A stretch of 32,000 bases of DNA. Origin: Candidatus Saccharimonadota bacterium (GTDB taxonomy: Bacteria; Pseudomonadota; Gammaproteobacteria; Enterobacterales; Enterobacteriaceae). The stretch is taken from assembly GCA_036689225.1 (NCBI GenBank), contig CP144768.1:127311-159310 (forward strand). The letters run 5' to 3'. Shown piece by piece: positions 9,564 to 12,345 of the stretch (position 1 is its first letter; each line of letters opens with the position of its first letter). Under the pieces are notes generated by a model. That model had not been told where the DNA came from. It did no database searches and was given only the letters and a program-made list of their open reading frames with translations. The position numbers were made by a program, and so were the translations under genes.

Positions 9564-9712
9564 ATTAAAATTTTTAATATTATTAAAATAATATAAAACT
9601 AATATATTATTATATAAATATATATAATATATGTTAATTATAATAATATTTTTAAATATTAAAAAATACATTATAAAATAATGTATTAAAAAATAAAAAT
9701 AATAACTATAAT

Positions 9713-9740
9713 TATATATATATATATATATATATATATA
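9713..9740. repeat. (TA)14 dinucleotide microsatellite
   Basis: There is an uninterrupted alternating TA run from 9713 to 9740. Confidence 0.9.
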
Positions 9741-10170
9741 AAATTAGATATATAAATTTTAAAAATTACTAAATTAATAATAAGAAAACAAAAAAAATAT
9801 AATTTTTTAAAATTTATTACTAATAAAAATACAAAAAATATAATAAAAAATATAAAAAATTAATTAAAAAATTAAATATAAATAAAATATTATTTTTTAA
9901 TAAATATATTAAAAAATAATCCTTTTAATATTATAAAAAAATTAATAAATAATATAAAAAATATTAAATATAATATTATATAAAAAATAAATATTCCAAT
10001 ATTATTAAAAATATTAATATCTAGAAAAAAAATATTTTACAATTAATTAATATTGTTATATTAATTTAAAAAAATAGTATAAATTATATAAATAAAAAAG
10101 ATAATATAAAAATTAGTAAAAATAAAAAATATAAAAAATATTAAAAATAAAAAAAAAATATATTAAAATT

Positions 10171-10539
10171 ATGTTAATAAAAATCAATAATATATTAATT
10201 TATGAAAAAATTACTACAAGATGAAATAAAAAACTTAAAATATTTAAAATAATAATAATAAATAATATAATATTAAAAGATAAAACAAAAATAAAATTAT
10301 TAAAACAAGTTTTACCATTAAATATAACATCATATATAATAAATATAAATAAATTTATAAAAATATATAAAAATATAAAATATTTAAATAAAAAAATATC
10401 ATTATTATTTATAAATTCTATAAATAGAATTAAAATCGTAAAAAAAAATATAAATATAAAATCTATTAATATAAATAATATATTTTTTAAAAAAAATACA
10501 AATAACTGATTCTATATAAATAAAATAAAAAAAATATAA
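10171..10539 (+). CDS. Hypothetical protein, 122 codons, visible only under translation table 4 (in-frame TGA at 10222 and 10507)
   Basis: I read it codon by codon as ATG at 10171, no TAA or TAG until 10537, and TAA at 10132 upstream. The product is MLIKINNILIYEKITTRWNKKLKIFKIIIINNIILKDKTKIKLLKQVLPLNITSYIINI...NNWFYINKIKKI. A stop-free run this long is very unlikely by chance in sequence this A-rich. I could not assign a family. Confidence 0.4.
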
Positions 10540-10841
10540 ATTCATTTTATTAATTATATAAAATATATATATAATTAAAAATTCGTAAAATATCAAATAA
10601 TAAAAAAATAGATTTAATAAAAATATTAAATAAAAAAAAAGATTTTATATTTATTTAAAAAAAAACAAAATATATAAATAATATTAATAAAAATAATATT
10701 AATATTTTTAATAAATTATTTAATAAATATAAAATCAATATTAAATCAATTCCAACTATATTATTTATTAATTTATTACACATTAATAAAATTAATATTA
10801 AATAATATAAAAATAGATATTAAAATAAATAATATTCTTAA

Positions 10842-11294
10842 AATAATATTATTAATATAAATAAATATAGAAACTTCTATTTTTCCATATATAACTTTAA
10901 CTTTAATAATATCTACTATAAAATAATCAATAAAATTAAGTATAACTTCATTAATTCTATTATCAGTTATAATAAAAAAATATTAACAATAATTATAAAA
11001 AATATAACTATAGTTTTTTAATATTTTTCTAATAAAATAATAAAAAATTAAAATTTATCTTATATTTCTTATATTTATATTATTATTTTACTATTACAAA
11101 AAATAAAAATTATTTTACTATTATTATTAATAAATACAACAATAAATACAAAATTAATTAAATATATATTAAATTTAATAATATTAATAATTATAGAAAA
11201 ATTAAATATAATAGAAAAAATAATAATAGTAGTAAAATATACAATAATAATTAATATGATAATAACAAAATTTTTAATACCATTTTTAATTTAA
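10842..11294 (+). pseudogene. Possible eroded gene remnant, a 150-codon frame interrupted only by TAA at 11019 and 11049
   Basis: Within this one frame (codon starts at multiples of 3), 10842-11018 is open for 59 codons and 11052-11291 for 80 codons. The second stretch reads NLSYISYIYIIILLLQKIKIILLLLLINTTINTKLIKYILNLIILIIIEKLNIIEKIIIVVKYTIIINMIITKFLIPFLI and is hydrophobic. Identity is unknown. Confidence 0.25.
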
Positions 11295-12345
11295 GATTTA
11301 TTATATTAAAATTTATAAAATTTAATTTATTATCTTTAAATATATTAAGAATTATATTAACAACTTTATATATATAATTATTACCAAAATATTACAATAT
11401 AATAAATAATAACAAAAATAAAAAAATAACAAAATATAACGAATTAAATTAAAAATATAAAGTATAAATATGAATAATAAAAAATTAATCACAATAATAT
11501 AATAAAAATATTTATAAAAAGTATATCTTTACAAAAAATCATAAAATTTTGAAAAAATACAAATATTAAGTTTTTATTATTATATAATAACAATAATAAA
11601 TAAATTATATAATAACAATATAAAAAAAACTATTAAAAAAAATTTAGAATTTTTTAATACTAAATCATATATAATTATATAAATATTAAATATAATAATT
11701 ACTATATAAGAAAAAAAAGCTAATAGAATTAAAATAAATAAAAATATAATTAATAATATTAAAATAAAATTAATAAATTTATTAATAGAAATAAAAAATT
11801 CTATATTTTGAGGTACAATAAGATTAATATTATTATTATTAAAAATTTAATTTAAGTATATTAGAAAATATAATAAATTCTCTATTATTTTTTATATTTT
11901 TTAATATAAAAAAATTATTAATATTATATTATGATATATATCATAGATATAAAAAAAGATTTAAAAAATAATTAAAAATATAAATAATAATATTTTACAA
12001 AAAATTACTGAAAGTTCATATATATTAAAATTATTTATAATAAATGTTTTAATAAATAAATGAACTAAAATAAATATACCTTTAATAATCAATTATTACC
12101 AAATATAATATTATTAATAATAATATTAATATATATACGATTATTAAAAAAAAATAAATCCTTTAATATTAATAATAATTATTTTTATATTTATAATAAA
12201 TAAATATTTTAATATAATTTCAAATTAAAATAATATAAATAATAAATTAATTATATTTTTAATATATATATATATATTAAAAGTATAATTTTTTTTTTTT
12301 TTACAAATAAAAATCAATTTTCAATAATATTAATTATAAAATTTA

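Follow-up and report, generated by a model that had tools for sequence, protein, structure and literature searches.

The 2782-bp interval between ychF and gyrA, at positions 9564-12345 of the window (the whole 32,000-nucleotide stretch of DNA that was analysed), almost certainly holds a dead operon. From 9714 to 12222 on the plus strand its sequence reads as the remains of manX, manY and manZ, the genes for the EIIAB, EIIC and EIID components of a mannose-family phosphotransferase system (PTS), in Candidatus Stammera capleta. An initial annotation, made from the letters alone, had described about 2.8 kb between these two genes to which no gene could be assigned and where G+C was at its lowest, and had suggested that one or more genes were being eroded there. 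The gap and its composition were both borne out, as the coordinates and flanks were confirmed and the interval has a G+C content of 6.2%, with 1-kb windows across 9001-12500 ranging from 4.8 to 8.6% against 9-25% elsewhere in the window. The proposal of erosion is likewise supported, by an alignment to the nearest intact operon and by many stops and frameshifts. Within the genome (268,407 bp, 14.8% G+C) just four stretches of at least 700 bp lack a 100-codon open frame: this interval, genome positions 2162-3060, and two stretches at 35-37% G+C, which are presumably ribosomal RNA genes.

A GyrA search of named records returned chromosomes of Candidatus Stammera capleta (CP1447xx and CP1448xx) at 65-81% identity. 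Stammera, a pectinolytic symbiont that lives extracellularly in tortoise and hispine leaf beetles, is annotated under genetic code 4 (bioRxiv 10.1101/2023.12.12.571295). Both flanking genes are whole only with TGA read as Trp (table 4). We compared the region 5' of gyrA from 19 genus members (12 + 7) with that of the studied genome, which we call G000, the other G numbers denoting the genus genomes compared. Across this sample the ychF-gyrA interval varies from 233 bp to 7.3 kb, and the long intervals (3-7 kb, 16-20% G+C) hold plus-strand (dtpA)-manX-manY-manZ, where dtpA stands for a dtpA-like gene for a POT-family peptide transporter present in some genus members and manX encodes EIIAB, in some relatives split into separate EIIA and EIIB open reading frames (ORFs). 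The nearest intact operon, in G045 (L041 5322-7916), has dtpA upstream and matches PF03610 and PF03830, PF03609, and PF03613 at 92-346 bits. Comparison with the syntenic interval of relatives was one of the checks that the initial annotation had recommended, and it is because the relatives' operon aligns end to end that we regard the identity of the manXYZ relic as settled. The relic shares 72.3% nucleotide identity with the G045 operon over 2589 nt and occupies the same slot, between ychF (or dtpA) and gyrA, as the intact Stammera orthologues.

Profiles built from the relatives' proteins were run against the six-frame translation of 9300-12600, with stops written as X, and every significant match fell on the plus strand and in operon order (Table 1). 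Searching the open stretches with hidden Markov models, another recommended check, gave colinear PTS matches, both to these profiles and in Pfam. The EIIB part of manX matches the genus profiles at 80.6-94.8 bits, and the whole-length manX match aligns well at the N-terminal part of EIIA and at the C-terminal end of EIIB. Among the Pfam models, PTSIIB_sorb (PF03830) recognises a 122-codon ORF within manX above its cut-off, and PF03609 recognises the middle of manY (28.5 bits, cut-off 26.3); the manY N-terminus matches PF03609 at 14.6 bits and the EIIA part matches PF03610 at 15.4 bits, both under the cut-off and both correctly placed. The best-preserved part by homology is manZ, where PF03613 scores 77.6 bits against the raw genome sequence of window positions 11509-12276, a stretch with 3 TGA, 1 TAG and 15 TAA codons inside it, and 95.2 bits on the manZ read-through. 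The EIIA-Man, EIIB-sorbose, EIIC-sorbose and EIID domains are therefore recognisable in the order found in E. coli ManX (EIIAB), ManY (EIIC) and ManZ (EIID) and in the intact Stammera orthologues. The reading frame changes within manX near 10027-10155 and 10492-10522, while manY runs through frames at 10678 to ~10961, 10962 to ~11290 and 11270-11446, which contain hydrophobic open stretches of 60, 59 and 80 codons; manZ carries a 46-nt deletion near 12087-12103.

Table 1. Coordinates in the window of the putative manXYZ relic, its homology matches and the adjoining features; lengths, stops and indels are relative to the G045 operon.
Feature	Position	Strand	Details
manX relic	9714-10637	+	EIIA ~9714-10081, linker, EIIB ~10165-10637; 73.6% nucleotide identity; 924 vs 942 nt; 8 stops at homologous codons; 6 frameshifting indels
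manX profile match, whole length	9714-10637	+	profile 3-311, 31.5 bits, frame of 9714
manX profile match, EIIB	10084-10506	+	profile 126-266, 80.6 bits
EIIB fragment of manX, 122-codon ATG ORF	10171-10539	+	PF03830, 56.9 bits, E 3.9e-15, cut-off 27
manY relic (EIIC)	10672-11449	+	three successive frames; 70.5% nucleotide identity; 778 vs 792 nt; 6 stops at homologous codons; 2 frameshifting indels
manY profile match	10678-11031	+	profile 3-120, 47.3 bits
manY profile match	10962-11369	+	profile 102-243, 65.9 bits
manY profile match	11270-11446	+	profile 206-265, 34.7 bits
manZ relic (EIID)	11470-12222	+	11470-12102 and 12142-12222; 72.7% nucleotide identity; 750 vs 804 nt; 5 stops at homologous codons; 6 frameshifting indels
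manZ profile match	11470-12102	+	profile 2-214, 143.8 bits, E 2e-45
manZ profile match	12142-12222	+	profile 248-275, 9.3 bits
ychF	8547-9563	+	upstream flank; intact, 338 amino acids under table 4
Spacer, ychF to manX relic	9564-9713		dtpA-like slot in several relatives including G045
Spacer before gyrA	12223-12345		TATAAT 12284-12289 and T-run; (AT)8 12262-12277
gyrA	12346-14832	+	downstream flank; intact, 828 amino acids under table 4

None of the three ManXYZ proteins retains an intact reading frame. Compared with the G045 operon, 2452 of 2538 coding nucleotides are kept (97%), and this near full-length sequence carries 19 stops at homologous codons, with more in the continuous frames (11 across the first 211 codons of manZ), or about 19-26 premature stops in all, together with ~14 frameshifting indels, a count that depends on the alignment in a sequence of 94% A+T. 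Two of the 19 stops lie where G045 has TGA (Trp) and several lie at CAA or GAA. Substitution has been strongly directional, with 74% of the G sites of G045 changed to A and 51% of its C sites changed to T, as against just 1.7% of A/T sites changed to G/C. The spectrum is also strand-asymmetric, as 16% of plus-strand G sites are retained versus 33% of C sites, in agreement with a GC skew of about -0.31 in the relic that is stronger than in the flanking genes. Uniformly across segments, 75-82% of the G/C sites present in the nearest intact operon have been lost, leaving the relic at 6.5% G+C, where the live operon has 17-24%. Little is left of the codon-position signal (G+C of ~0.04-0.08/0.08-0.14/0-0.07, versus 0.19/0.19/0.03 in the flanking live genes), and the composition signature of a live gene has gone with it. 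The intervals of sister genomes from which the operon has been deleted have 2.2-3.5% G+C, which is probably close to the neutral equilibrium, and on that scale the relic would be about four fifths of the way to an equilibrium of ~2-3.5%.

Both phosphorylation sites have been replaced. The EIIA motif ICMHG has become IYIYI and the EIIB motif RLIHGQV has become ILIYEKI, so that Tyr stands at each position where the intact relatives all keep a phosphorylatable His. The altered EIIA site lies within (TA)14 at 9713-9740. Apart from this run and (AT)8 at 12262-12277, the tandem repeats of the interval are only low-complexity AT arrays. Judged from its sequence, the relic is a pseudogene of the mannose-family PTS and not a working member: unlike a working manXYZ operon, it has broken frames, substituted phospho-His residues and a greatly reduced G+C content, in a genome where HPr and full-length EI are missing.

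The open stretches that first drew attention to this interval are explained by the same homology. All of those listed in the initial annotation are present at the positions given, and so are its two TAA codons (11019 and 11049), which stand where G045 has CAA and GAA; the stretches 10842-11018 and 11052-11291 do share a frame with only these two TAA codons between them, and both belong to the middle of manY. The open runs extend over 10171-10539 (122 codons from ATG; 134 stop-to-stop, from 10135), 10678-10860, 10842-11021 and 11052-11294; the first corresponds to the manX EIIB domain and the other three to pieces of manY. The best-preserved gene, manZ, was missing from that list because it contains more stops. 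Sequences simulated under Markov models of orders 1, 2, 3 and 5, 300 for each order, had a longest open run on the plus strand of 47-55 codons on average (95th percentile 63-75), and in none did it reach 134, in keeping with the earlier view that the pattern is not random; four plus-strand runs of at least 59 codons were observed versus 0.1-0.4 expected. The minus strand is also rich in long runs, with seven of at least 59 codons versus 1-2 expected, and because such an excess also occurs opposite live genes, openness by itself does not identify the coding strand. Opposite live ychF there are antisense open frames of 146 codons (8537-8977, minus strand) and 73 codons (9020-9241, minus strand). 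These antisense frames are composition artefacts, and ORF length alone is an unreliable guide in this genome.

The partners of manXYZ are damaged too. The Pfam HPr model (PF00381) had zero matches in the studied genome; a profile built from the genus found a ptsH relic of 44 codons at genome 1041-1172 (L035; 30.7 bits) that the Pfam model misses. The ptsI gene is reduced to an ORF of 258 codons (genome 1385-2161, L035) with the EI N-terminal domain only, and the ~900 bp downstream (2162-3060, 4.9% G+C) contain weak, stop-filled matches to the EI C-terminal domain. An EI together with HPr, which we took as the mark of a working PTS, was not found in the studied genome. The decay of manXYZ in company with ptsH and ptsI, and substitutions that run nearly all towards A/T, together lead us to read this sequence as a dead operon. 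The remaining EI N-terminal ORF is 63% identical to an intact PtsI, retains the active-site His (GSLSSHISIIAK) and has G+C values of 0.185/0.143/0.023 at the three codon positions, as a live gene would. With HPr and EII gone from the genome, it gives the impression of an orphaned domain still under selection.

The same association holds across the genus, where by absence we mean that a gene was not found in the genomes searched. In a sample of 41 Stammera genomes, HPr was found in 30, every one of which has an intact manZ, and among the 11 without HPr manZ is absent in eight, broken in two (G000 and G021) and open but degraded in G025, where it scores 158 bits in Pfam versus ~330-350 for intact copies. 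This G025 manZ (L036:7087-7887) is an open 269-codon frame of 8.5% G+C that scores 233 bits versus ~470 for live copies, and conserved Gly, Pro, Asp and Glu residues have been replaced in it. In a tree of one protein (GyrA), obtained by a short search, the studied genome falls in a seven-member clade with a Shimodaira-Hasegawa-like approximate likelihood ratio test (SH-aLRT) support of 99, in which HPr was found in none of the seven, and the sister of this clade is G045, with dtpA-manXYZ and HPr intact. Within the clade the ychF-gyrA interval spans a range of states, from the 2782 bp of the studied genome with its near full-length relic, through 1742 bp in G025 (manZ open but AT-ised) and 917 bp in G021 (a manZ relic), to 602 bp in G046, 318 bp in G007, 276 bp in G009 and 233 bp in G036, in all four of which nothing is detectable. 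G025 and G036 are close sisters that differ by the entire manZ remnant. Two further lineages, G004 with G022 and G012 with G026, have undergone independent loss of the pathway, so that, on gene content and the GyrA tree, it is lost independently in at least three lineages.

Some of the genomes outside the clade retain other pieces of the system. Remnants of manX with EIIA-Man only, at 152-184 bits, occur at L011:8390-8806 (G004), L020:7680-8105 (G012) and L042:6652-7077 (G026); the remnant is an open ORF of ~140 amino acids in G004 and G012, and the G026 copy has 3 stops in the matched stretch. G004 also has a full-length PtsI (1030 bits), though HPr was not found there.

These observations enabled us to propose a course for the loss. 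The most economical reading is that inactivation took place on the stem of the seven-genome clade and was followed by lineage-specific decay. In this model, the PTS would no longer have been needed in the ancestor of the clade, or one of its components, possibly ptsH, would have broken, after which selection would have lapsed on all partners in a "domino" loss. The operon would then have drifted in the studied genome under extreme G/C-to-A/T mutation pressure, with no large deletion as yet, and the long open stretches would be surviving pieces of the original reading frames and not genes. In the sister lineages the same relic would have been removed partly or wholly by large deletions. The retention of 97% of the length, taken with the difference between G025 and G036, therefore suggests that DNA is removed by occasional large deletions rather than by gradual shrinkage.

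Several observations weigh against this account. When the observed substitution spectrum was applied to the G045 operon in a neutral simulation, the average outcome was ~49 in-frame stops, with 73 codons as the longest open run; the relic has about half as many in-frame stops, a run of at least 134 codons has a P of ~0.01 for the whole operon, and a stop-free EIIB segment has a P of ~0.001, although this segment was chosen after the fact. The deficit of stops fits the view that part of the divergence between G000 and G045 accrued while the genes were alive, but it may also be a sign of some remaining constraint. With regard to a single inactivation on the clade stem, no disabling mutations shared with G021 and G025 could be demonstrated in the DNA alignment, where parallel AT drift obscures them.

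A different view of the wider pathway is that Stammera loses its PTS one domain at a time and that selection keeps some of the domains as orphans once transport has died. The EI N-terminal ORF of the studied genome would fit this, as would the EIIA-only ORFs and the full-length PtsI of other PTS-less strains. We consider this view unlikely, although not implausible. If it is true, the manXYZ relic is the discarded part, and what is left of the pathway would serve some purpose outside the PTS, perhaps in regulation. The 122-codon EIIB ORF does not, on the evidence so far, belong among such orphan survivors.

The same ORF is the focus of the reading that the open frames are functional small genes, co-opted remnants or fast-evolving lineage-specific genes, the last of which the initial annotation had offered as its alternative to erosion. 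The ORF has an ATG start and a Pfam match above cut-off, it has no stop in 134 codons where ~4-6 would be expected from the stop density of the relic or from the simulation, and the apparently constrained EI N-terminal ORF shows that orphan survival is possible in principle. However, its conservation equals that of its dead neighbours: compared with G045 it has 57% amino acid identity and keeps 25% of G/C sites, the same values as manZ (57% and 25%) and slightly below those of the broken EIIB C-terminus (60% and 33%). Its codon-position G+C of 0.06/0.12/0.04 is that of the relic and far from the live values of 0.19/0.19/0.03, or from the 0.26/0.21/0.05 of the live G045 manX. The active-site His and conserved Gly residues are gone, the C-terminus of the domain lies in another frame, the partners HPr, EIIA, EIIC and EIID are dead, and in four of the six closest relatives the interval has nothing detectable of manX, manY or manZ. 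The alternative of lineage-specific genes is not supported, as the frames are fragments of conserved PTS genes that have lost their catalytic residues and show no live-gene composition, and we consider a function for any of these frames very improbable. The EI N-terminal ORF, with its live-gene composition and its active-site His, shows by contrast how a retained fragment looks in this genome. Given that its conservation does not exceed that of the stop-riddled parts around it, the 122-codon ORF is most likely a chance survivor within a pseudogene, and an annotation should call it a pseudogene fragment, not a gene.

It is harder still to see the stretch as non-coding DNA with a function of its own, whether in starting or ending replication or as a long regulatory leader of gyrA, its AT-richness then being structural; we attach barely any weight to this reading. 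In its favour, G+C is lower here than anywhere else in the window, the interval lies near the middle of the chromosome, and a TATAAT 5' of gyrA aligns in some relatives. Set against this, the cumulative GC-skew extreme is at genome position 127,066, ~10 kb upstream of the region, relatives with ychF-gyrA spacers of 233-318 bp do without the stretch, tRNA and Rfam scans of the interval gave zero matches, and protein homology accounts for its whole length. The position of the skew extreme and the dispensability of the stretch in relatives rule out an origin or terminus. The TATAAT itself (12284-12289) is followed by a T-run and lies 57 nt 5' of the gyrA ATG, in alignment with G045 and G025, and is a possible candidate for a gyrA -10 element surviving beside the manXYZ relic. 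Finally, an assembly or sequencing artefact of an intact operon has a negligible chance of being correct: extreme AT content and homopolymers are error-prone on some platforms and some of the apparent frameshifts lie in A-runs, but errors cannot yield ~430 directional G/C-to-A/T substitutions, at least 19 stops and a His-to-Tyr change at both sites, ptsH and the C-terminal half of ptsI are lost in parallel at a separate locus, and independent assemblies of sister strains show related states of decay.

The decay of this operon has clear parallels in other endosymbionts. The fate of non-functional DNA is reportedly the subject of classical work on Buchnera. A Buchnera study describes "domino" gene loss with relaxation across whole pathways (PMC6027505), and a Wolbachia study sets out stages of neutralisation, pseudogenisation and erosion (PMC4224334). 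As in the cases so described, the members of the Stammera pathway decay together, AT-biased substitutions, stops and small indels are followed by deletion, and related strains are found at different stages. The relic differs from those cases in three ways: its G+C has fallen to 6.5% and is heading for ~2-3.5%, it keeps 97% of its length despite ~28% nucleotide divergence, and code 4 makes the change of TGA (Trp) to TAA an easy route to a stop, taken in 2 of the 19. For Stammera itself, a comparison of 50 genomes has described high synteny, unidirectional gene loss and pseudogene prediction, with an accessory genome rich in genes for energy and metabolism (bioRxiv 10.1101/2023.12.12.571295). 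The main text and one supplement of that paper do not mention the PTS, manXYZ or ptsH, and our literature search found no paper tying Stammera to PTS, manX or phosphotransferase. The manXYZ relic thus adds a new and well-resolved case of domino loss and pseudogene erosion, a process already known.

This example shows genome reduction cleanly and in a form that can be dated, in a bacterial genome that is among the smallest and richest in A+T, and the sister strains of this co-speciating symbiont preserve the decay of a whole pathway, that of ptsH, ptsI and manXYZ, at several different stages. With nearly all of its length left, the relic also shows the neutral mutation spectrum directly; G-to-A and C-to-T changes dominate it, with a strand asymmetry. 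The loss has potential consequences for metabolism. Glucokinase (PF02685) was found in none of the 41 Stammera genomes, pgi is present in all five genomes checked (G000, G045, G007, G025 and G004), and pfkA was found in G000 and G045 but in none of G007, G025 and G004, which lack the PTS. From this gene content, it is not evident how PTS-less Stammera would convert free hexose into hexose phosphate, and with neither a PTS nor a recognisable glucokinase, how glycolysis is supplied in these strains becomes a question.

The surroundings of the relic show further variation. In the 150-bp spacer after ychF no trace of dtpA was seen, and a tblastn search of the whole genome with the G045 DtpA gave no match under E=0.5. 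Some relatives have a gene for a 90-amino-acid ElaB/YqjD-like protein after manZ, which was looked for and went undetected in the studied interval, and in two genomes nrdAB lies within the interval on the opposite strand. The ychF match is partial in G021 (residues 1-103, L037) and G046 (residues 1-190, L039), of 338, and ychF may itself be decaying beside the relic in these two genomes. In G034 (C1:163896-166341), G043 (C1:163713-166182) and G048 (C1:158525-160974), gyrA was found as two overlapping pieces with 10-21 TAA codons inside, which suggests a frameshift or split of the gene or an assembly problem.

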